From contig NC_073393.1 of the NCBI RefSeq assembly GCF_028641065.1, forward strand, positions 36,146,001-36,210,000: a stretch of DNA of 64,000 nt, in the 5' to 3' direction. Source of the stretch: Leucoraja erinacea. Its lineage: Eukaryota. The notes beneath the pieces are model-generated. The model did no database searches and was not told where the DNA came from. It saw only the letters and a list, made by a program, of their open reading frames with translations. The stretch's first letter is position 1. The number at the start of each line of letters is the position of its first letter. The position numbers were made by a program, and so were the translations under genes. Of this stretch, positions 2,490 to 57,589 are shown one piece after another.

Positions 2490-3025
2490 CCATTGTCATC
2501 TACCACACTATCTACATCCTGAGGGCCAAGGACAAGTCGCACCTTGGCCACTCCCTCTTCTCCCCTCTCCCATCGGGCAAAATGTATAGACGTGCGAAAA
2601 CGTGCACCTCCAGATTCAGGAAAACTGTTTCTTTTTTTTTTTTTTTTTTTATTAGAAGTAAGCACAGTCATATGGCACCAAAGTGCCTAATATATATTTT
2701 CATAATACATTTTATGTACAACTTCTTTTTTTTTTTGTTACATTGAAAAAAGATGAGAATAAGAAAAAGAGGTTAGATAGTAAAGGATAGAAAAATGTGA
2801 AATATATAGTGTGTGAAGAAAGAAAACGAGTAAATGAAGAAAGTTGAGAGAGAAAATAGTGAAAAGAAAAGGAGATCATTATTTATAGTCTTGACCAACT
2901 GTTTCTTTCCGGCTGTTATCAGGCAACTGAACCATTCTACCACAACTAGAGAATAATCCTGAAGAACTATCTACCTCATTGGAGTCCCTTGGACTATATT
3001 TGAGTGGACTTTACTGGTGTATCTT
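2490..3025 (+). mobile_element. Rex1/Babar LINE 3' fragment split by an L1 insertion
   Basis: Translates GHSLFSPLPSGKMYR...TSRFR..CFFPAVIRQLN across the insertion. Confidence 0.75.
2635..2896 (-). mobile_element. 5'-truncated L1 (3' UTR plus poly-A) with ~12-bp TSD
   Basis: Reverse complement matches 18680-18960; AACTGTTTCTTT at 2623-2634 and 2897-2908. Confidence 0.85.
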
Positions 3026-13741: not shown

Positions 13742-14152
13742 CATAGAAACATAGAAAATAGGTGCAGGAGTAGGCCATTCGGCCCTTCGAGCCTGCACCG
13801 CCATTCAATATAATCATGGCTGATCATCCAACTCAGTATCCCATACCTGCCTTCTCTCCATACCCCCTGATCCCTTTAGCCACAAGGGCCACATCTAACT
13901 CCCTCTTAAATATAGCCAATGAACTGGCCTCAACTACCTTCTGTGGCAGAGAATTCCACAGATTCACCACTCTCTGTGTAAAAAATGATTTTCTCATCTC
14001 GGTCCTAAAAGACTTCCCTCTTATCCTTAAACTGTGACCCCTTGTTCTGGACTTCCCCAACATCGGGAATAATCCTCCTGCATCTAGCCTGTCCAACCCC
14101 TTAAGAATTTTGTAAGTTTCTATAAGATCTCCCCCCTCAATTTTCTAAATTC
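13742..14152 (-). mobile_element. Young CR1/HER1 LINE 3' end
   Basis: RTRGHSLRIRG...FFTQRVVNLWNSLP; (CATAGAAA)n tail. Confidence 0.9.
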
Positions 14153-14249
14153 TGTTTCAATATTGTATGTTGCCTTCACTCTATATAAAACAGTGGATAA
14201 AGTAGCATTGTTTGTTTGTCTTCTTTACAAGAATATTATATATTTTGGG

Positions 14250-15285
14250 TTTAGGTTTATTATTGTCACATGTATTAAGTTACAGTGAAAATCTTTGTTT
14301 TGCATTCTATCCAACCAAATCAGATAATACAATGCATAAATACAATCAAACCAAACTCAAGAACAATCGGTAGAGCAAAGGGAAGGATACAGAGAGCAGA
14401 ATAGATTTCTCAAAGTTGTAGCAAACCCGTTCCAGAAACACAGTCCAATGTCCACAACGTGGTAGAGATGAATCAAACAATACCCCAGCTTATGGAAGTA
14501 CCGTACAGAAGCCTGAGGGGAAGAAGCTGTTCTTGAGTCTGGTGTTGTGCATTTTCAAACCTAGATCTTCTGCCCAGTGGGAACAGGGAGAAGAAGGAAT
14601 GACTTTCTTATTTGATTAATCTTTAAAAGGTGTTGGTGTGCCTTGGCTGTCACTTCAACGTATTTGGTCCATGATAGATCAATGGTAATATTTACGCCTA
14701 GGAACATGAAGTTCTCAGCCATTCGGCACCATTAATGCTGCTAACTCGCTCTGATATCTTGCTGACATTGAGGGAGAGGTTATTGTCCTGACACCACATC
14801 GCTATGTTCTCTCTCTCATTGTACTCTGTCTCATCTGTGTTCTTGGTCAGTCTCACCACAGTGGTGTCATCTGCAAACTAGCAGATGGAGTTAAAGCCAA
14901 ATTTGGCCTCACACTCCTGAGTGCATGAGGAGTATTGTGGGGAACTGAGAATTCCGGGCATCATTGCGGGGTGTTGAGAATGATTGTGTTTCTGTGGGTG
15001 GGAAAGTCGAGAATCCAATGGCAAGAGGGGGGTGCTGATTCCCAGGTCCAACAGTTCAGAAATTAACTTGGATGGAATTATGGTGTTGAAGGTGGAGCTA
15101 TAGTGGATATGTCCTTGTTGTCTAGGTGTTGCAGAGATGGGTTTAGAGACAGGGAGATGGAGTACATCTGGACCTGTTGTGACAGTCGACAAGCTGTAGT
15201 GGATCAAGGCTGTCTGGGTGGCTTCACCAGTCTCTCAAAGCATTTCATGTTGGTGAATGTCAAAGCCACTGGACAGTAATCATTA
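14250..15285 (-). mobile_element. Decayed, internally deleted Rex1/Babar LINE
   Basis: Minus YSSTFNTIIPSKLISELLDLGISTPL, C*FADDTTVV; tail TGACAATAATAAACCTAAACC. Confidence 0.8.
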
Positions 15286-15449
15286 AAAGGCTTTTAACTA
15301 CACAATAATGCAATGCTATGATTTCCCTATCAGAATTTTCTTTGTTGATTAAACTTGTTTTATTTTATTACATTTATTGGCCAATGATTTATATGGATTC
15401 AATGATGCTACTGTTTATCATCATGTGAATCGGATTCCATGACTTTTTA

Positions 15450-16050
15450 TCATTTATTGGTTCACAGGGTATTAACTGCTGGCAAGGCTACCATTTCATA
15501 CTCTTTGATGGATCCTGTGTTATTGGGATATTTCATGCAACCTTTAAGAGTCACACATTGGTGGATCTGGCATCATTGGTTTTCTGAAAAAGGTAAGGAT
15601 TGCAGAGTATCCTACCCGAGGGAGATTAGTGGAATAACCCAGTGTGCAAATACTGGTTTAAACCGAATATAGGCACAAAATTGCGGAGGAATTCAGCGGG
15701 ACAGGCAGCATCTCTGGAGAAGAGGAATAGGTGATGTTTCGGGTCGAGACCCTTCTTCAGACTTGAGTTTGGTTTGATGGTATTTATGCATTGTATTATC
15801 TGATTTGGTTGGATAGAATGCAAAACTCGCAGTCTGAAGAAGGGTCTCGACCCGAAATGTCACCCATCCTTCTATCCAGAGAAGCTGCCTGACCCACTGA
15901 GTTACTCCAGCATTTTATGCATATTTCAGTGGACTAACCCAGCTGTTTTACAGTTGTTATTGCTGATATTAGTTACTAGGATTTAGGTTTGCAACTACCA
16001 TGGTGTGATTCACCTTCATATTTTATGATCAGTGTATGCTGGGCCAAATT
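15450..16050 (-). mobile_element. Old Deu-domain/SacSINE1-like SINE remnant
   Basis: Weak resemblance to GGCAGATTTCCTTCCCTAAAGGACATTAGTGAACCAG-type motif; hosts 15643-15927. Confidence 0.35.
15643..15927. mobile_element. Fold-back Penelope pLTR insertion with 15-bp TSD and captured spacer
   Basis: AGTGGA(A/C)TAACCCAG at 15628-15642 and 15928-15942; inverted pLTR arms around 15762-15830. Confidence 0.85.
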
Positions 16051-16087
16051 AATATTGAAGGTTCATTTTGACTATGATTTTAGATTT

Positions 16088-16424
16088 ATTTAGTTTAGTT
16101 TAGTTTAGTTGTTTAGAGATAAAGTGAGGAAACAACCCTACAGCCTGCCGATTCCTCATCGACCAGCGATCCCCGTACATTAACACGAGGGACAATTTTC
16201 ACTTATACCAAGTAGCCAATTAACAATTTACAATTTTCACCGTCAATTAACCTGTATTTTTTTGGAATGTGGGAGGAAATCGAAGATCTCAGAGAAAACC
16301 CACACAGTCACGGGGAGAACGTACAAACCCTGTGCAGACAGAACCCGGTCGGGATCGAACCCAGGTCTCTGGCGCTGCAAGCGCTGTAAGGCAGCAACTC
16401 TACCGCTGTGCCACCATGCCACCC
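16088..16424 (-). mobile_element. HE1-type SINE, near full length
   Basis: (TTTAG)n tail, V-domain, B and A boxes. Confidence 0.85.
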
Positions 16425-17266
16425 TAATATATATATATATATATATATATATAACTTATTTCCAGAATACTCAATGAGATCATGTGAGGGATATCAGCAG
16501 TGTGTGTGTCAATCCTGATTTCTTCCTAATGTCCTCTATCGCGCGTGTGTATGTTTGAATGGTGTGTGAGGACAGTTTGGGCAAGTTTATGATAGCTGTC
16601 TTGGTGAGAAAACCTGCCCACATTCACCATTAAGAATTAGCAATGAGTAGACACCACTTGGAAGGGAAAGGAGTGAACCATGGATGTCTGTGAAGCAATA
16701 TCCTCACAGAAAGTCAATGTCTCGAGGCGATAAGGTAAAATTAACTGTGAAAAATTGGGAAAAACATGATGTTTCTTCAATTTAACATCTATCTTCTTTT
16801 GCTATTCCACCATCTTGATAGTGGGGACAGAATTGATCTATGATGGCTCATTCATGAACGCTGCAAAGAAGAGCTTGCTTCATGTTCACTGATCTACTGT
16901 GACTAATCTGCCACTATAACTCTTAACTAGGGCCCCCGTATTATCTCAAGCCAAGTCAGGACAAACATTTGATATAAAGTAGTTTATCAGCTCCGCATTG
17001 AATTATACGTGGAGCAGTTCAGTGCCTGAAGCCAACTATGGAATCTAGCTCTCTATTTCTTCCTTGTTCATCTGGTTGCCCTCAGGAATTCACATTATTT
17101 TGCTCTCATCTAAGTATTCAGTCACGCTCTTGATCACGATGTTATAATTGTCTTTGTGATATGATAAAGTAATTTCAAATTTGGTGATCTCTACGAGTTT
17201 CTGAATCCGCATGTCTATTTCCAAGCAGCTGTCATTTTTTGTACCTTTTTTCTCAGTTTCACTTTT

Positions 17267-17730
17267 ACAAATTTACATATGAACTTTTACTGTCTGGTCC
17301 TTCACATCAGGTGATCGATGGGCGGCATGGACTTGGTGGGCCGAAGGGCCTGCTTCCATGCTGTATCTTTTAGTCACTCAATTCAGTCAATCAGCAAGTC
17401 CAATAAATCAGCCAGCCACATCCTCTTCTTTACTTTCATTAACAACAAAATAAATACACACAGAATCCTTTCCCAAAATCCAAACAAACTGTTTATTGTG
17501 GCTGATTTACTTGAGGAAACCTTAAGCTTCCTTAATACGCGCATGTAAATAAAGTAAAAATGAAGGCAAATAAACGTAGCTTTTTTAGGATAAAAAAATT
17601 AATACCAATAAAGAACAAATAAATAAAACATAAATGATGAAAGTAAAAAAGGATAATTAGATTAACAAACAAGCAAATCATCAATTCAATAAGAACGAGC
17701 AAAGATAAAATGGTATAATAACTACTATGT
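17267..17730 (+). repeat. Direct repeat copy 1 (~464 bp) left of L1
   Basis: About 98% identical by eye to 18968-19433. Confidence 0.95.
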
Positions 17731-18967
17731 ACTAATAACCCTTTATTTAAACCATCTCTTATTGATAAGACATATAACCAATGGGAAAGTCTCGGAATTA
17801 GAAGGATCGGGGATATGTATGAAATGGGAAACCTACTATCATTCCAACATCTACAATTAAAATTTAAATTGAAAAACAACCAATATTTTAAATATCTTCA
17901 CATTTGCGACTTCGTGAAAAAATATATACAAGGATATCAAAAAGTAACTCCTGACTTATTGGAAGAAGCAATGAATATTGAAGCTGACTCACAAAAATTA
18001 ATATCATATTTATATAATAGTATTCTAAATATAGACCTACCATCGACAGAGGTACTTAGAGAAGAGTGGGAACGGGAACTAATGATAAAAATTACGAAGG
18101 TTAAATGGGAAAAATACCTGATATATATTCACAAATGTTCAATTAATGTAAGACATAATCTAATTCAATTTAAAATTGTACATAGATTATATTATTCAAA
18201 AATAAGATTGAACAAATTGTATCCAAATATATCCGCCATTTGTGATAAATGTCTAGCCCGAAAGGCAACTATAACACACTCCTTAGTTTCCTGCATAAAA
18301 CTTTATAGATTTTGGAATGATATTTTTGAAATATTTACAAAATGATTCAAGACAAGAATGGAACCTAATACTGAAATGATTATATTTGGTGTAATGGAAG
18401 ATGGGAATAAATTGAACACATCTCAAAATCTATTCCTAAACTATGGTTTAATAATAGCAAAAAAATGAATACTTAAATTTTGGAAGGGTACGTCAATACC
18501 AATGCTTAAAATGTGGATTGCAAGTATGTTGGACACCGCTCATCTTGAGGAAATGCGATTCCTCCTAATGGATAAATCAGACCAATTCATAACGAGTTGG
18601 TCTCCATTCGTCGTTTTTTTGGAATCATATGGTGCAACACAATTGTAAAAAATAACTGTTTCAGGACTGGACGAGGGTTGGTCAAGATTATAAATAATGA
18701 TCTCCTTTTCTTTTTTATTTTATTTTCTTTTCTCTATTTTCTCTCTCAACTTTCTTCATTTACTCGTTTTCTTTCTTCACACACTATATATTTCACATCT
18801 TTCTATCCTTTACTATCTAACTTCTTTTTCTTATTCTAATCTTTTTTCAATGTAACAAAAAAAAAAAAAAGTTGTACATAAAATGTATTATGAAAATATA
18901 TATTAGGCACTTTGGTGCCATATGACTGTACTTACTTCTAATAAAATAAAATATTAAAAAAACAAAA
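17731..18967 (+). mobile_element. 5'-truncated fish-type L1 (ORF2 C-terminus, 3' UTR, poly-A)
   Basis: LIQFKIVHRLYYS...CDKC...THSLVSC...FWNDIF zinc knuckle; AATAAA and A-rich tail. Confidence 0.9.
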
Positions 18968-19433
18968 ACAAATTTACATATGAACTTTTACTGTCTGGTC
19001 CTTCACATCAGGTGATCGATGGGCGGCATGGACTTGGTGGGCCAAAGGGCCTGCTTCCATGCTGTATCTTTTAGTCACTCAATTCAGTCCATCAGCAAGT
19101 CCAATAAATCAGCCAGCCAAATCCTCTTCTTTCCTTTCATTAACAACAAAATAAATACACACAGAATCCTTTCCCAAAATCCGAACAAACTGTTTATTGT
19201 GGCTGATATACTTGAGGAAACCTTAAGCTTCCTTAATACGCGCATGTAAATAAAGTAAAAATGAAGGCAAATAAACGTAGCTTTTTGTAGGATAAAAAAA
19301 TTAATACCAATAAAGAACAAATAAATAAAACATAAATGATGAAAGTAAAAAAAGGATAATTAGATTAACAAACAAGCAAATCATCAATTCAATAAGAACG
19401 AGCAAAGATAAAATGGTATAATAACTACTATGT
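18968..19433 (+). repeat. Direct repeat copy 2 (~466 bp) right of L1
   Basis: Starts immediately after the L1 A-tail; matches 17267-17730. Confidence 0.95.
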
Positions 19434-19504
19434 CCCCAATATCTCTTATTCTGTGTTACAGGTCTTGCATATAAGCTTTGCGCTCTCTCCACTTAGAAAC
19501 ACAT

Positions 19505-21510
19505 GATAAAATAGGCCAAACTCAGCATGGTTTTGGGAAATAGAAATCTTGCCTGCCGAACTTGTTGGAATTCTTTGAGGAAATAAATAGCAGGATAGAC
19601 AAAGGAGAGTCAGTGGATGTTCTTTGCCTGGGTTTTCAGAAGGCTTTTGATAAGGTGCCGTATGCGAGGGTACAAAAGAAGATGAGAGCCCACGGTATCA
19701 AAGGGAAGATACTAGCATGGGCTGCAGGTTGGCTGGATGGCAGGTCAAAAAGTGGCAATAAAGGGGACTTTCACTGGTTGGCGGCCTGTGACTAGCAGTA
19801 TTCTGCAGGAGTCGGTGCTGAGACCACTATTCTTCACGTTGTGTATCAATGATTTGGATGAGGGGATTGAAGGCTTTGTGGCCAGGTTTGCAAGTAATAT
19901 GAAGATAGGTGGAGGGACAGGGCAGTGTGGAGAAAGCAGGGACTCTGCGGAATGACATGGACAGGTTGGGTGAATGGGCAAAGAAATGGCAGATGGAATA
20001 CAGTGTAGCATAGTAGGGAATCATGCGTTTTGGTATAAGGAATAAAGGCATATACTATTTTCTAAATGGGGAGAGAAATCAGAAATCAGAGGTGCAAAGG
20101 GATTTATGAGTGGTGGTACAGTATTCCCAAAAAGTTAATTTGTAAGTTGAATCAGCAGTAAGGAAGGCAAAGGCATTGCTAGCATTTCAAGAGGACTAGA
20201 ATATAATGTATTGCTGAAGCTTTATAAAACACTGGTCACACCGCATTTGGAGTAATGTGAATAGTTTTGAGCCCACATCTGAGAAAGGATATGATGACGT
20301 TAGTGGGTCCAGAGGAGGTTTACGAGAATGATCCTGGGGATGATTGGGTTAACATGTGATGAGCGTTTGGTGGCACTAAGCCTGTACACGCTGGAGTTTA
20401 GAAGGATCAGGGGACACCTCAATGAAACTTACTGATTAGTGAACAGCCTGGATAGAGTGGATGTGGAGAGGATGTTTCCACTAGTGGGAGAGTCTAGGAC
20501 CAGAAGCCACACCCACAGAATATAAAAGAACATACCTTTAGAAAGGAGATGAGGAGAAATCTATTTAATGAGCGGATGGTGGCATCAGCAATGGCTGCAT
20601 TGCCAACAGTCTGTCTGTCCCTTCCTTATCTGTTGTTGCTTTAGAATGTGTTAAATGTATGTTTTTCGTGTTGTTCAGCTTGTTTTATGTGGGGTGGGGG
20701 TTGGGGGAAACTTTTAAAAATCTCTTACCTCGACGGAGATGCAATTTTTTTCCGTATCGTATCTCTGTCCGCACTGCAGCCTAACATCGAGGAGCTGGCG
20801 GCCTCTGCTGGAGACAGACATTGGGAGCTCAAACCCGCGGGAAGTCTGCAGGACTTTAACATTGCGGAGCTGGCGATCCCTTTGGCGGGGATCAACCTTT
20901 GAGCTCCATCCACGGGAGCCTGCAGACTTTAACATCATGGAGCTCGCGGTCTCTGGTTAGAGACCAGCTTCGGGAGCTCCAAGCCGCAAAGCTTCGCCAC
21001 GCTGACGCGGGGGCTTTGATCGCCCCAATGCGGGGGCTTCGAAAGCCGGCTGCGGGAGCTTTGATTGCCCTGAGGGATGGTTCGACTACCCCGACCACGG
21101 GAGAAAAATTTGGGAAGAAGATTAGACTTTATTGCCTCCCCCCATCACAGTGAGGAATGTGGGGAATACGCTGTGGTGGATGTTTGCGTTAACGTTTATG
21201 TACTGTAATTGTGTGACTTGTTCTTTTTTTTAAGTATGGCTGTGTATGGTAATACGAATATGACTGTACCTTAATTAGTACACGTGACAATAAAATACCT
21301 TTGAAACCTTTGAATCTATGGAATGCATTGCCATATACAATTGTGGAGACCATCAAGGGGTATTTTTAAGGCACAGATTAGCAGATTCTTGATTAGTAAG
21401 GGTGTCAGGCGTTATGGGGAGAAGGCAGAAGAATGGAGTTGAGAAGGAAAGATAGATTAGCCACGATTGAATGGTTGAGTAGACTTGATGGGCCAAATGT
21501 CCTAATTCTA
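19505..21510 (+). mobile_element. CR1/HER1 LINE (RT domain to 3' end), frameshifted
   Basis: LEFFEE...VDV...FQKAFDKVP, QESVL.PL.F..CINDLDEG, FAS.MKIG, WQMEY. Confidence 0.9.
20582..21310 (+). mobile_element. GC-rich Rex1-tailed non-autonomous retroelement (copy C) nested in CR1
   Basis: Splits CR1 GGTG|AATCT; GGCTGC..GCCAACAGTCTG head; GTACACGTGACAATAAA tail. Confidence 0.75.
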
Positions 21511-34386: not shown

Positions 34387-34496
34387 CTAGACTAAGTGGG
34401 ACCCGTTGGGTCCCAGCATCACACAGAAGGGCTGGTCACTTTTCACTTCCCACTTGTGGTCAAGGGGGGATGGGAGAGGGGGGGAGGGGGGGGGGG

Positions 34497-34527
<31 letters not shown>

Positions 34528-34829
34528 AGGGGGGGGGGGGGGGAGGGGGAGGGGGGGGGAGAGAGGGGGGAGAGAGGAGGGGGGAGAGGGGGGGGAGGGG
34601 GGGGGGGGGGGGGAGGGAGAGAGGGGGGGGAGGGGAGAGGGGGGAGAGAGAGGGGGGGAGAGAGAGAGGGGGGGAGGAGGGGGAGGGAGAGAGGGGGGGG
34701 GAGGGGAGAGGGGGGGAGAGGGGGGGGGGAGGGGGGGGGAGAGGGGGGGAGAGAGAGGGGGAGAGAGAGGGGGAGAGAGGGGGAGAGAGGAGAGAGAGGG
34801 GGAGGGGAGGGAGAGGGGGGGAGAGAGGG

Positions 34830-34860
<31 letters not shown>

Positions 34861-35514
34861 GAGGGGGGAGAGAGAGGGGGAGAGAGAGAGAGGGGTGAGA
34901 GAGGGGGGGGTGAGAGGTGGGGGTGAGGGGGGAGAGGAGAGGCAGAGAGGTGGGGAGCAGGGAGGGGGAGGGTGGAGGGTCAAGGGAAGGGGGTAGGGGT
35001 ACGTGGAGGGGAGGGGGGGGGGGTTTAGGGGAGGGACAGTGGGGGAGGGGTTGGATGGGAGGAGGGAGAAAAAGAGGGGGGGATAGAGAGATAGAGAGAG
35101 AGAGAGAGGTGCCTTTTTACTTCAACCCAAACCCCCCCAAACAACCATTTGCATGCAGTGCTTTTTTCCTCAAACTAACCATATTTTCCTTTTCAAACCA
35201 CTTTATGGGTACTCACAGCTGTGGAGACATTCGTTCAGCGTCATTCAGCTCTGATTGAGGCACACCACTTCCTGGTTTTATAGTCCCTCCCCCTCCCTTC
35301 AGCAGGGGCAGCTGAGAAAACGGGGAATTTTGTAAAAACATTAATATCTCTGTCATTTTTCATCGATGGGAAAAATCCTCGGCACACATGCGGCGGAGGG
35401 GGGCTTTGAGCGAGGTGGCCAAAAATGACGGCCGTAGGTGGCGGCGTTCTCTCGGAAATCGCAGCACAGAAGGCCAAAAGCGGTCAAGAACAGAGATTTA
35501 GTTATATAGATAGA
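34387..35514 (-). mobile_element. Non-autonomous Helitron
   Basis: Minus strand begins A|TCTATCTATATAACTAAA and ends GGGACCC-AAC-GGGTCCC hairpin, ACTTAGT, CTAG|T; no TSD. Confidence 0.75.
34466..35107 (+). repeat. G/GA-rich low-complexity tract inside the Helitron
   Basis: About 640 bp almost entirely G and A. Confidence 0.9.
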
Positions 35515-39284: not shown

Positions 39285-39466
39285 NNNNNNNNNNNNNNNN
39301 NNNNNNNNNNNNNNNNNNNNNNNNNNNNNNNNNNNNNNNNNNNNNNNNNNNNNNNNNNNNNNNNNNNNNNNNNNNNNNNNNNNNNNNNNNNNNNNNNNNN
39401 NNNNNNNNNNNNNNNNNNNNNNNNNNNNNNNNNNNNNNNNNNNNNNNNNNNNNNNNNNNNNNNNNN
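39285..39466. other. Assembly gap
   Basis: Run of N. Confidence 1.
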
Positions 39467-43941: not shown

Positions 43942-44422
43942 GTCAGACTGTTTCCTGGGATGTCAGGACTGTCTTATGAAGAAAGACTGGATAGACTTGG
44001 TTTATACTCTCTAGAATTTAGAAGATTGAGAGGGGATCTTATAGAAACTTACAAAATTCTTAAGGGGTTGGACAGGCTAGATTCAGGAAGATTGTTCCTG
44101 ATGTTGGGGAAATCCAGGACAAGGGGTCACAGCTTAAGGATAAGGGGGAAATCCTTTAAAACCGAGATGAGGAGAACTTTTTTCACACAGAGAGTGGTGA
44201 ATCTCTGGAACTCTCTGCCACAGAGGGTAGTTGAGGCCAGTTCATTGGCTATATTTAAGAGGGAGTTAGATGTGGCCCTTGTGGCTAAGGGGATCAGGAG
44301 GTATGGAGAGAAGGCAGGTACGGGATACTGAGTTAGATGATCAGCCATGATCATATTGAATGGCGGTGCAGGCTCGAAGGGCCGAATGGCCTACTCCTGC
44401 ACCTAATTTCTATGTTTCTATG
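43942..44422 (+). mobile_element. Young CR1/HER1 LINE 3' end with open ORF2 frame
   Basis: LSYEERLDRLGLYSLEFRRLRGDLIETYKIL...; (TTTCTATG)2 tail. Confidence 0.92.
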
Positions 44423-44647
44423 TCATTAATTAATTGGTTGTTATTTAAAAGATAGATGGAGGTTTTCAATAAATCTAAGAAAATAAGGCATGAGGAAAAT
44501 TATTTGAGTACTTATTATCAATCATGATATCTTTAGTAAAAGTTTGAGATGCAGCATTTTAAAATCTGCCACATCTAAGTGGCTGGCATTCAGAGTCAGT
44601 GGGGAACAACACTGAGGGTGGGGCCAGGCCAACACTTTAGAGTTTAG

Positions 44648-50873: not shown

Positions 50874-53298
50874 TTACGTTTCATAACATATTCCTGGTTT
50901 CTATATGTTGTATAGCCCCACCATATGAAGAAGATGCTAAACTGACTGTAATCTGTGTACAATTGGCAATGGACACTAAATATTTCAAACTCCCTAGTGC
51001 CTATAATATCGAAGATGCAAAGATCTAGGGTCCTTAACCCATCTAAAAAGTGGTGGGAATTATACTGCATGTTGACAAATCGATTCAAAAATCAGATAAT
51101 AATCTGCTTAAATAGAAGCCAGCAGATCATCTGTATTTAGTGAACAGCTGACTGAAGCAGCCTTAAGTATCCATCAGAGGTTTGTGCTGTTAACAACTTG
51201 GGAAGGGGGAGAATTTGGCCTGCTTTCTTCTACTCTGAGGACATTACAAATAGGTAAAAGGGATGGCCATCACTCCTTGGCACTCAGCATCCCAGGCAAA
51301 CAGCTAATAGAACCAAATAGATTTTAACAAGGGCTTTAAGTCAGTGTTATTAATGTGTTATAAGCGGCACCTTTGTAATAGAATTAACCGATGATAACAA
51401 GTGGTTAGTGCCATTTAATAAATAAGTAACTTCTAGAGATAAGCATGGACAATGTTTGTAGAGACTGTATCCCAATCTAAACTATTCTGTATATTTGGGT
51501 AAAATGTTTTATTCAAGGTGGATGTATATTATATCAGTATTAATAATGGGGTTCAAACATATGAATCATTTAGCTTCATACAGAATTAGTACGGCAGTAG
51601 GTGAATAACACAGAAGGCAGATGGCACATGCGTTAGATTATGTTTCTTTGACACAAAGATGCATTTAGTACCAGAGCAGCAATGTAGGAAAGTTGTAGTT
51701 CCAAATGTCTGTCATCCACATCCAAATCAAAATAATGCCAATGGCCGGTGTGCCTTCACATTCATTATTTTTTTTCCACATGAAGTGCTTTGGATCTGGT
51801 CCCTTGTGAACTCTATCCTCTAATGTATGCTGACCTTTAGACAGAACTTTATGGAGTTTGCATATTACTGCAAGGTCTCTGCAGATTTGGTGGTTATAAT
51901 CCAAAACCCAGTTATAGGCCTCAGAGGAGTGAAATTAAATTTTGGGGGCCTTTGTACTTGGCAGACAGCAGAATTTTTTTTTACACCATGAAGCATATAG
52001 CAGTTCTCATAGTTTTCACAACAACTTCTGTTTTCATTTATTCCTAAATGAAGAACATCAGAAAGACTTTGAGAAAAACTGAGGAGAAATAGACCTTGAC
52101 AGAAATACATTAGCTACGCACACAAGAGCTGATCATTTTTCCCCAAATAATTAGGTTAATATGTGTAAGGAATGCTTCATTTTTTTTTTCAAATGAATAG
52201 GGAATATGTTTTGGCAACAATGAGATTTTAATGCCTTTTCAGTACCTATTAGCTCCGTCTATCTGTTCTTGCTTTAGCAGTCCCTTTGATCAGCTAAGCT
52301 TAGGAGAATAAATAACTTCAACATGAGGCACAAAGGTACAGTTTCATTTAGCACTGGGAAAAGGGCCAGGGGAAAAGTGGGTTCTTAATACTATAATTGT
52401 TCTCTTTTTAAATACTGGCAGGCCCTGATTTCCACTCGAGTCAGTCTGCTGTTAAGAATTCAGAGCAAAAATGTGTTGTAACTGCATGTTGACCTTTTAC
52501 CGGTTTAATGATATAAAGATTAAAGTGCCCGTGGCTTAATTTACATACCAGTCCGATACAGGATGCATGGATATGGGGATGTGAAATTAATGGAGACCAG
52601 GTGTTTGAAACAGGAGCTTGCATTCAGCTTACTCATATGTTCCTTCTGCTTCAGATCTGGCTGTGCCACATAAATATAATCCTCCTAGATTGTCCAAATC
52701 CTTTCTTAACCAGAATAGAATAATTTTGGCAACCAAAGCACAGCAGAATAAAACCATTTGCTTTATCTTTCCTATATCGTCCGCTCTTTAGGATTTGGCA
52801 GTGAAAACTAAATTGTAAAGCCCAGTTGTATTACATGTGTCGCTGCATATACAGTAGTTGTGGTTTGTCAAGGCCTATCCTTCAAAACGGAACTACTGCT
52901 AAAGTTTGAACACGGTTCAATTCTGATAAGATCAATTCACTTTTGCCAAACTAAATTTATATTTAAGAGGAAAAGGATCATTGTTGCAGATGAAATTAGA
53001 TTTAAAATAACAGGCTGGACTATCGAAATACATTTGTTTATAGTAGAGCAGTATAGGCCTTCACATAGTTGAAAGTTTGTAATTAACAAGTGGATAAGAG
53101 TAATAGTCACCCTCACTAATAAACCACTGTAATGGTGCCACAGCACAGTGTCAGCTGGTTAGTCCAAACAACCCCCAGTGTCAGATTCTACTATTAAAGG
53201 AAAGAAAATGATTATGATCAGAATGTATTAAGTAAATCTGCGGGAATAACTAATGTACGCTAATGATCGACTTTATATTTAAGTTAAATTAAGTTTCT

Positions 53299-53681
53299 TA
53301 TAGAAACTTACAAAATTCTTAAGGGGTTGGACAGGCTAGATGCAGGAAGATTGTTCCCGATGTTGGGGAAGTCCAGGACAAGGGGTCACAGCTTAAGGAT
53401 AAGGGGGAAATCCTTTAAAACCGAGATGAGGAGAACTTTTTTCACACAGAGAGTGGTGAATCTCTGGAACTCTCTGCCACAGAGGGTAGTTGAGGCCAGT
53501 TCATGGGCTATATTTAAGAGGGAGTTAGATGTGGCCCTTGTGGCCAAGGGGATCAGAGGGTATGGAGAGAAGGCAGGTACGGGATACTGAGTTGGATGAT
53601 CAGCCATGATCATATTGAATGGCGGTGCAGGCTCGAAGGGCCGAATGGCCTACTCCTGCACCTAATTTCTATGTTTCTATG
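53299..53681 (+). mobile_element. Young CR1/HER1 LINE 3' end
   Basis: Nearly identical to 44038-44422. Confidence 0.92.
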
Positions 53682-54355
53682 TTTTTAAACCAGAAAAAGC
53701 TGTAAAGTTGGCATCTTGTCCCTTCTGCCAGAGGACATATTTGTTATTCTCTCCTAGTCCAAGACAATGGTATCCCAGTTGCAGTACCCAGTAGCTACAG
53801 GATAGTATTGCACAACTTATTTACCCAGATTTTCACTTGCAAACGGACACCAAGATTTGTGACCACTTCTTTTGACAGGCTCTGCCTGTAGAAAAAACAC
53901 TTTTAACCAACATAGAGGCTAGTCAATGAACAACAGTCACACTGTTTTAATATTGCAGCAATCATTTTTATAAACACCCACACTTACTATCTAATGGTTT
54001 ATGCTGTATATGGAGTACTGACCATATCATTCATCCATGTTTTCATTTGATTGCCTAATGAAATATCATTAGCATTAATTTTGTATGGTTTATTGTTCTG
54101 TTTTGAATTATTTCACTTTTGAAAAAGTACCTGAAATAGCTGTGCAAGGTGTTTGACCTGTTACATTAAGTGTTAATGAGTTCTGTGTGAAGAAATGATT
54201 TAGTTGCATGAAACATTGTGGGTAATAAACGACATCATCACTCCTTAAAAAAAGATGGCGAGTTTTTGGACTGCATTTGTTCAGCTCACCTGCAAAATGG
54301 AAAATCATTCTTGGTGCCTTCCTTTCAAAGTTGACACAAGCAGTAAATACATAAT

Positions 54356-55699: not shown

Positions 55700-56606
55700 A
55701 GGGGGTGGCCCACTGCAGCGATTTAATCCACAAGTCCAGAAGAGTGTCTTCGACCTTCAAACTCGCGGGCACACGCCTGGAAAGCCTCGAGCTGGATCGA
55801 CCGTCCGCGTTGAAACCGTGAGCTGGATCGATCGACTGCACACAAACACATCGCAAAGGCGGGGGCCAGTAAAAGCGGGGGAGCGCTGTCTGAAATTCAC
55901 ACCCACGATGAAGAGGAAGGTTAAACGACTGCACAGCAATGGTAAGTCTTTTAGAGAGCGCGGAGGGAGAGGAGGGGGAGGGGGAAGGGGAAGGGGGAAG
56001 GGGGGGANNNNNNNNNNNNNNNNNNNNNNNNNNNNNNNNNNNNNNNNNNNNNNNNNNNNNNNNNNNNNNNNNNNNNNNNNNNNNNNNNNNNNNNNNNNNN
56101 NNNNNNNNNNNNNNNNNNNNNNNNNNNNNNNNNNNNNNNNNNNNNNNNNNNNNNNNNNNNNNNNNNAAGAGGAGGGGGGGGGGGGGGACGAAGGAGTGGA
56201 GACAATTTTAAGAAGTATAATAAAGTTTAGCGGGCATTTAACCTACCGGTTGGTTTTCCTGGGTCCTGAAAACTCCAATGAGCCAATCAAAATGCCCGAT
56301 CAGCGAAGGAGATTGCCTACAGCTGCCCTCGACTGCCTGTACCTAAATAGCAACCCCACTCCACTGCACCATGAGTTAAAAAGAACCATGCCGACCAAAC
56401 TTTACTCGCAGAAAAATTTTCAACATGTTGAAACATTTTCCGTGACCTCGCTGAGGCCACAAGTATTCGGGAACGTCTCTCGAGCAGGAGAGTTCCAGTG
56501 ACCTCTTAGGACCTCCTAGGACCACGTGTCGACCATGCTACGAGTTGGAGTCGAGGGCAAACTCTTCTAAACTCGCAGATTAGGTCGCCGCAGTGGGACA
56601 GTCCCT
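55700..56606. mobile_element. Non-autonomous PIF/Harbinger element spanning a gap
   Basis: Imperfect TIR AGGGGGTGGCCCACTGC / GCAGTGGGACAGTCCCT; TAA TSD; right half homologous to 24090-24279. Confidence 0.8.
56008..56166. other. Assembly gap
   Basis: Run of N within a G-rich tract. Confidence 1.

Positions 56607-57552: not shown

Positions 57553-57589
<37 letters not shown>

Follow-up and report, generated by a model that had tools for sequence, protein, structure and literature searches.

Can a single inherited L1 insertion duplicate several hundred bases of its target? The question is raised by a locus in a 64,000-nucleotide stretch of skate DNA (Leucoraja erinacea; hereafter the window), in which two nearly identical repeats enclose the 3' part of an L1 element. 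A preliminary description made from the sequence had put the locus forward as a candidate giant target-site duplication (TSD).

The duplicated unit and its junctions

The two repeats are 98.3% identical, and their eight differences consist of six substitutions (copy-1 coordinates 17343, 17389, 17419, 17432, 17482 and 17507) and two one-base indels, copy 2 having an additional base opposite each of 17585 and 17644 in copy 1. Both repeat ends are sharp and abut the L1 ends to the base, which places direct repeats at both insertion ends (Table 1). The preliminary description had spoken of two repeats of about 98% identity that directly abut a 5'-truncated L1, and its coordinates proved exact. Copy 1 is preceded by TTTT, the L1 ORF2 frame runs from 17731, and copy 2 comes right after the A-rich tail, as had been noticed, with a one-base ambiguity at the boundary, where the first A could equally be tail.

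An observation apart is made at the tail end (18940-18975): an extra ACAAA lies just ahead of copy 2, which itself opens with ACAAA, and the short sister copy of the same L1 family has a plain poly-A. The extra letters may be a scar of slippage or re-priming.

Copy 1 had also been said to start near an L1 endonuclease site. Its start, TT/ACAA, is indeed one mismatch from TT/AAAA and would fit an endonuclease nick, but an equal match is found at 26 of 2,211 neighbouring positions (1.2%), and the evidence is modest.

The unit contains the 3' end of an old, very high-copy repeat, putatively of the CR1/SINE type; it has several further matches in the window, and in the contigs its summed depth exceeds 1e6, with loose ends at 17308-17310 and 17368-17370. 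Because this repeat end lies inside, the duplicated unit is a mosaic of host DNA. No tandem array was found in the region of the unit and the L1, and an Rfam search of 15000-21000 returned no matches. A search of the window for direct pairs of 40 bp or more at 90% identity or higher gave just two: the unit pair and a dispersed repeat whose two copies lie 8.9 kb from each other.

Table 1 Features of the locus and of the sister insertion (window coordinates)
Feature	Position	Strand	Remarks
Short sister insertion, same L1 family: 3'UTR and poly-A	2623-2908 including TSDs; body 2628-2899	-	internal control
Copy 1, upstream TSD, duplicated target DNA	17267-17730	+	464 bp, host sequence, 33% GC
3' end of old very high-copy repeat, inside unit	17311-17368	+	second copy 19012-19069
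L1 ORF2 C-terminal 305 codons, 5'-truncated	17731-18648	+	reading frame; zf-RVT E 0.0021, under the curated cut-off (Pfam)
L1 3'UTR	18649-18939	+	part from 18677 on common to short sister copy
AATAAA signal and interrupted A-rich tail	18940-18967	+	joined directly to copy 2
Copy 2, downstream TSD, duplicated target DNA	18968-19433	+	466 bp

The L1 element and other repeats of the window

The insert between the copies measures 1,237 bp and represents a 5'-truncated L1 with the end of ORF2, the 3'UTR and an A-rich tail. The reading frame is interrupted by in-frame TGA stops at 18343 and 18466 ahead of the terminal TAA (18646-18648), and the copy is dead. Besides the zf-RVT match given in Table 1, a HMMER search with the ORF2 fragment (E<=0.001) identified 2,834 relatives. 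Among these is a protein of 1,269 aa, whose C-terminal end aligns with the fragment (E 4e-43, 30% identity). It carries APE and RT domains, is named LINE-1 RT-like and itself matches human LINE-1 ORF2p over its length (E 1e-180). The fragment alone gave no significant match in PDB, with three weak unrelated ones, and a word-indexed search for longer homologues produced 690 candidates, none of them at E<=1e-10. Through the full-length relative, the insert appears to belong to the L1 clade, an indirectly supported assignment made for a copy from which the RT domain is missing. Structural features of the clade are found as well: a 3'UTR with a poly-A signal and an A-rich tail, and 5' truncation.

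The best relative of the ORF2 fragment (74%) is the Leucoraja erinacea protein XP_055488550.1. It is named 'palmitoyltransferase ZDHHC21 isoform X1', yields a weak zf-RVT match (Pfam) and aligns to L1 ORF2 with residues 82-312; the entry probably reflects either a mis-annotated gene model or exonisation of a piece of L1.

Compared with the 3'UTR of the long copy (from 18677), the sister insertion shows a 17-bp indel and, as far as the tail, five substitutions. Its TSD of 12 bp, at 2897-2908 and 2623-2634, bears out the ordinary duplication described earlier for this family. A long TSD is therefore present in one of the two family copies of the window, that copy having been chosen for its oddity.

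The 3' end of a different repeat occurs in three young copies that are 93-97% alike (13742-14153, 44013-44429 and 53296-53688); no long flanking duplication was seen at any of them. Elsewhere in the window, a 500-bp G/GA low-complexity tract (34463-34972) and similar G-rich runs next to the 56008 gap and at 57553 may be hard-to-sequence regions.

Filled and empty sites in public contigs

Contigs of four organisms (A, E, F and C; one run each) were aligned to 16520-18967. The locus is present in 20 of the 24 listed runs, with seven organism labels, B, D and G being outside the comparison. All 24 runs consist of contigs, and no listed piece spans the whole structure. The run of organism A (X1) may be the window's own source, and only E, F and C count as independent. 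With a single copy of the unit in the aligned region, sequence from both copies piles up there; the depth test consists of within-run ratios of single contigs, corrected for single-copy overhang and with F and C as controls, contig depth not being a copy number. As 18940-18967 was skipped as a repeat, the comparison covers the repeat-to-L1 junction and not the junction between tail and copy 2; with the skipped repeats, two joints and 37 loose ends were lost. Flank divergence from the window amounts to 7/690 in E (1.0%), 18/806 in F (2.2%) and 48/831 in C.

The unit has a contig depth of 49.9 in organism A, compared to a flank depth of 24.8 (or 32.2 when summed over a heterozygous bubble), and of 20.2 in E, compared to 11.6. 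The corresponding values are 38.4 and 39.6 in F, and 12.5 and 14 in C. After correction, the unit/flank ratios are 1.60-2.11 (A), 1.97 (E), 0.96 (F) and 0.84 (C). The added depth of E at 17288 (35.2), which can be read in more ways than one, was left out.

The contigs also differ in what follows the unit. One contig of A crosses 17730/17731 from the unit into the L1 (387 + 33 letters). The alignment of the F contig ends precisely at 17730 and is followed by 159 non-L1 letters, that of the C contig ends at 17724 with 184 such letters behind it, and the E contig stops matching at 17730, followed by 122. Judged from their lengths, these non-L1 letters would be right flank; the continuations past the unit would end at 19555-19611, near the start of a decayed RT-like repeat. 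In both F and C a single contig runs unbroken from the left flank into the unit, which is found there at the orthologous place.

Taken together, F and C look like empty single-copy sites, in keeping with the expectation of the preliminary description that the empty site should hold one copy. A and E look like duplicated sites, E by double depth alone. For organism A, two zygosity models predict unit depths of 51.0 and 50.5, and a model of the window haplotype plus an empty allele predicts 39.8; the first two are close to the depth observed.

A haplotype-merge misassembly, or a tandem duplication already present at the empty site, had been named as what could undo the interpretation. Both are unlikely, because F and C are single-depth, A and E are doubled and the repeat-to-L1 junction is present in A; behind the unit of F and C, moreover, no L1 is seen. 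Doubt about the assembly arises from the nature of the evidence, which consists of contigs without a spanning read, and from the sample of organism A, which is highly heterozygous nearby and has a contig with a unit version unlike either window copy. In one study, all 10 of the large TSD calls from capture data that were checked also turned out to be chimeras (PMC4805530). Nevertheless, a merger of two haplotypes or a chimeric read is improbable here: a single copy per haplotype would cap contig depth at about 32, far below that of A, the same doubling occurs in an independent study (E), and the 5' junction is found in A contigs. Besides, the only N gaps of the window (39285-39466 and 56008-56166) are about 20 kb or more away, and each copy apparently has derived letters of its own.

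Two direct repeats around a coding stretch resemble the layout of a mobile element with LTR-like terminal repeats that captured a piece of L1. This reading is largely refuted and we give it next to no credence, given that the unit has no TG...CA ends, is an orthologous single copy in F and C and, outside the embedded repeat tail, is of flank-like or double depth and not high copy.

Three side observations were made on the same contigs. At 17096-17261 the second haplotype of X1 differs at 6 of 166 bases (3.6%), which exceeds the distance of E (1.0%) or F (2.2%) from the window. It carries outgroup letters, one of them at 17231, where the other letter is common to the window and E, and is possibly an old allele that predates the insertion. 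Within 25 bases, an X1 contig combines the letter of copy 2 (at 17482) with that of copy 1 (at 17507), and if contigs were built from 31-letter words, the sample has a unit version equal to neither window copy. Finally, between 17341 and 17724 the unit differs from organism C at 9/378 positions, compared with 48/831 in the left flank (Fisher p 0.008), without such a difference in F; lower GC and CpG content may explain the lower divergence from C.

Age of the duplication

At 17419, 17432 and 17482, organisms E, F and C carry the copy-2 letter, and copy 1 is therefore derived at these positions. Copy 2 is probably derived at 19090, 19208 and both one-base insertions, the latter because the F contig has no gaps relative to copy 1; among the rows listed, it shows no difference at 17389 or 17507 either. 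Since the split from E, the window lineage has accumulated 4-6 substitutions in 690 flank bases, from which 5.4-8.1 substitutions would be expected between copies that were identical at the A/E split. The six observed would fit such copies, the counts being small and the agreement one of consistency only. The event would date from the interval between the split from F (2.2% flank divergence) and the later one from E (1.0%).

The ratio of L1 depth at 18260 to flank depth is 6,445 in A, 5,657 in E, 622 in F and 129 in C, i.e., the summed L1 depth relative to flank in A and E is about 10 times that of F and about 50 times that of C. This index, although rough, suggests that the duplication and the expansion of the L1 family took place in the same interval.

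An order of events in which a tandem duplication of the 465-bp unit postdates the split from F but precedes the L1, which then landed on the junction with a 0-2-bp TSD, should be weighed at this point. The double depth of E without a displayed L1 junction would agree with it, as would the first two bases of the L1 (AC), which equal those of the unit and fit a 2-bp TSD (chance 1 in 16). It requires, however, two events and an insertion placed precisely at one junction, while a better nick site is offered by the unit's original start, and F and C are single-depth. Furthermore, no joint back from 17730 to 17267 was found in any run among the 15 of 19 joints listed, though contig simplification could remove one. 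We consider this order unlikely.

A probable single insertion and its possible mechanism

The most probable explanation, in which we have good confidence, is that one germline insertion of an L1-clade element made a true 465-bp TSD. The proposal of the preliminary description is thus upheld by the anatomy, the single-depth and L1-free site in two outer relatives, the double depth in two inner ones and the concordant ages.

A comparable arrangement could originate from two independent same-strand L1s, located after and before the unit on different haplotypes, through an unequal crossover that leaves a pseudo-TSD. The product would be indistinguishable from a giant TSD and the L1 family is very abundant; the HERV-K literature discusses pseudo-TSDs formed via other recombination events (PMC5488345). 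A second same-strand copy within 500 bp has, however, a rough chance of 8e-4 to 8e-3 (with the contig total taken as genome size), and this precedes the crossover and its spread, whereas long TSDs in cultured cells reach 1 in 25 and up to 10%. Likewise, the copies need no divergence at their origin, although regional haplotypes can differ by the 3.6% mentioned above. This route seems to us slightly less credible than a duplication that came first.

For the single insertion, ORF2p would nick the bottom strand at the unit start (top strand TT/ACAA), reverse transcription would be primed on the poly-A and cDNA synthesis would end after about 1.2 kb. The cDNA end would then be joined 465 bp downstream of the first nick instead of 10-20 bp, and fill-in would copy the intervening host DNA twice. 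We infer this distant join from the structure of the locus, and it might be reached by a far second-strand nick with strand displacement or by replication (break-induced replication or sister-chromatid bridging). Judged from this locus, the far nick has a narrow edge, close to an even balance.

A long 5' microhomology tract was considered and is unsupported: the two closest ORF2 relatives read P-I before the first residue, so that, judged from these protein relatives, about one base at most is shared with the end of the unit. Family-like depth starts at or after about 17731. As a separate observation, the first 17 bases of the L1 (17731-17747) resemble the flank after copy 2 (19434-19450), with 0.3% of 2,193 background positions equal; the length was the best of six tried, and the resemblance is a weak hint of homology-assisted joining. 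No sign of a function of the duplication was found at the locus.

Comparison with known systems

With engineered human L1, TSDs above 100 bp accompany no more than 10% of insertions in HeLa but 57-91% in cell lines deficient in XPA, XPC or XPD; a distant nick has been proposed for cases where nucleotide-excision repair does not act, and large-TSD alleles are expected to be short-lived via recombination between the TSDs (PMC5223499). These events resemble the skate locus in the poly-A tail and in duplicating several hundred bases, and possibly in an endonuclease-like first nick, but they arose de novo from reporter constructs in cultured human cells (PMC5223499). The skate insertion, in contrast, is endogenous and inherited, belongs to a cartilaginous fish, has copies that are 1.7% diverged and is apparently found in two organism labels.

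ZfL2-2 is a zebrafish L2-type element. In chicken DT40 cells, which are repair-proficient, it produced a 1,228-bp TSD in 1 of 25 insertions (PMC2666801). Like the skate case, this is a fish LINE with a long TSD, although obtained in a heterologous cell assay and not inherited.

Larger L1-associated events are known from tumours and induced clones. Duplications of 1-10 kb have been called large TSDs, with break-induced replication proposed (10.1101/2024.12.14.628481), and sister-chromatid bridging has been proposed for L1-associated tandem duplications (PMC7058536). Both sets have, as here, an L1 at the duplication junction; unlike the skate locus, they are somatic, come from unstable genomes and range from kilobases to megabases.

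Natural non-LTR elements with long TSDs also exist, namely Dualen-4b of Chlamydomonas (median 900 bp) and rotifer R9 (126 bp), in which they are a family trait of other clades with two endonucleases or an rDNA target (PMC9977147). In the skate L1 family, by comparison, the sole sister copy in the window has the 12-bp TSD. HERV-K (HML-2) provides inherited flanking duplications of 111-450 bp in a vertebrate genome, some with a verified empty allele and subject to the same pseudo-TSD doubt, but these were made by a retroviral integrase and not by target-primed reverse transcription (PMC5488345).

According to one review of the evidence, TSDs above 50 bp have been observed at an appreciable rate in HeLa only, and those of inherited and reference-genome human L1s are nearly all shorter than 25 bp (PMC4805530); the human median is 21 bp (PMC12350158). 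A vertebrate-wide survey of structural variants counts only TSDs shorter than 30 bp; in its scheme the skate allele, with homology over 27% of a 1,703-bp variant, would go to the 'homology-associated' bin and not to TSDs (PMC13320814). An inherited L1 TSD several hundred bases long was not encountered in the literature searched, outside which most subscription journals and supplements lay.

Implications for L1 biology

The locus is a rare inherited example of an outcome known from HeLa, repair-deficient and tumour cells, in which one insertion probably duplicated about 30 times more DNA than usual. It provides an inherited case in a wild vertebrate, with apparent empty sites in two outer relatives, and suggests that the distant-join outcome arises in a germline and can persist without recombinational collapse. 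Alone, it is one rare event. That long target duplications are a regular product of the expanding skate and ray L1 family, or of the lineage's germline repair, is a speculative extension to which we assign a small chance. If it were true, L1 would continually supply inherited duplications several hundred bases long, which outlast the separation of species, and surveys that count TSDs only below 30 bp would miss them. L1s flanked by 30-1,000-bp repeats, which the current survey bins elsewhere, can be mined from existing haplotype-resolved assemblies.
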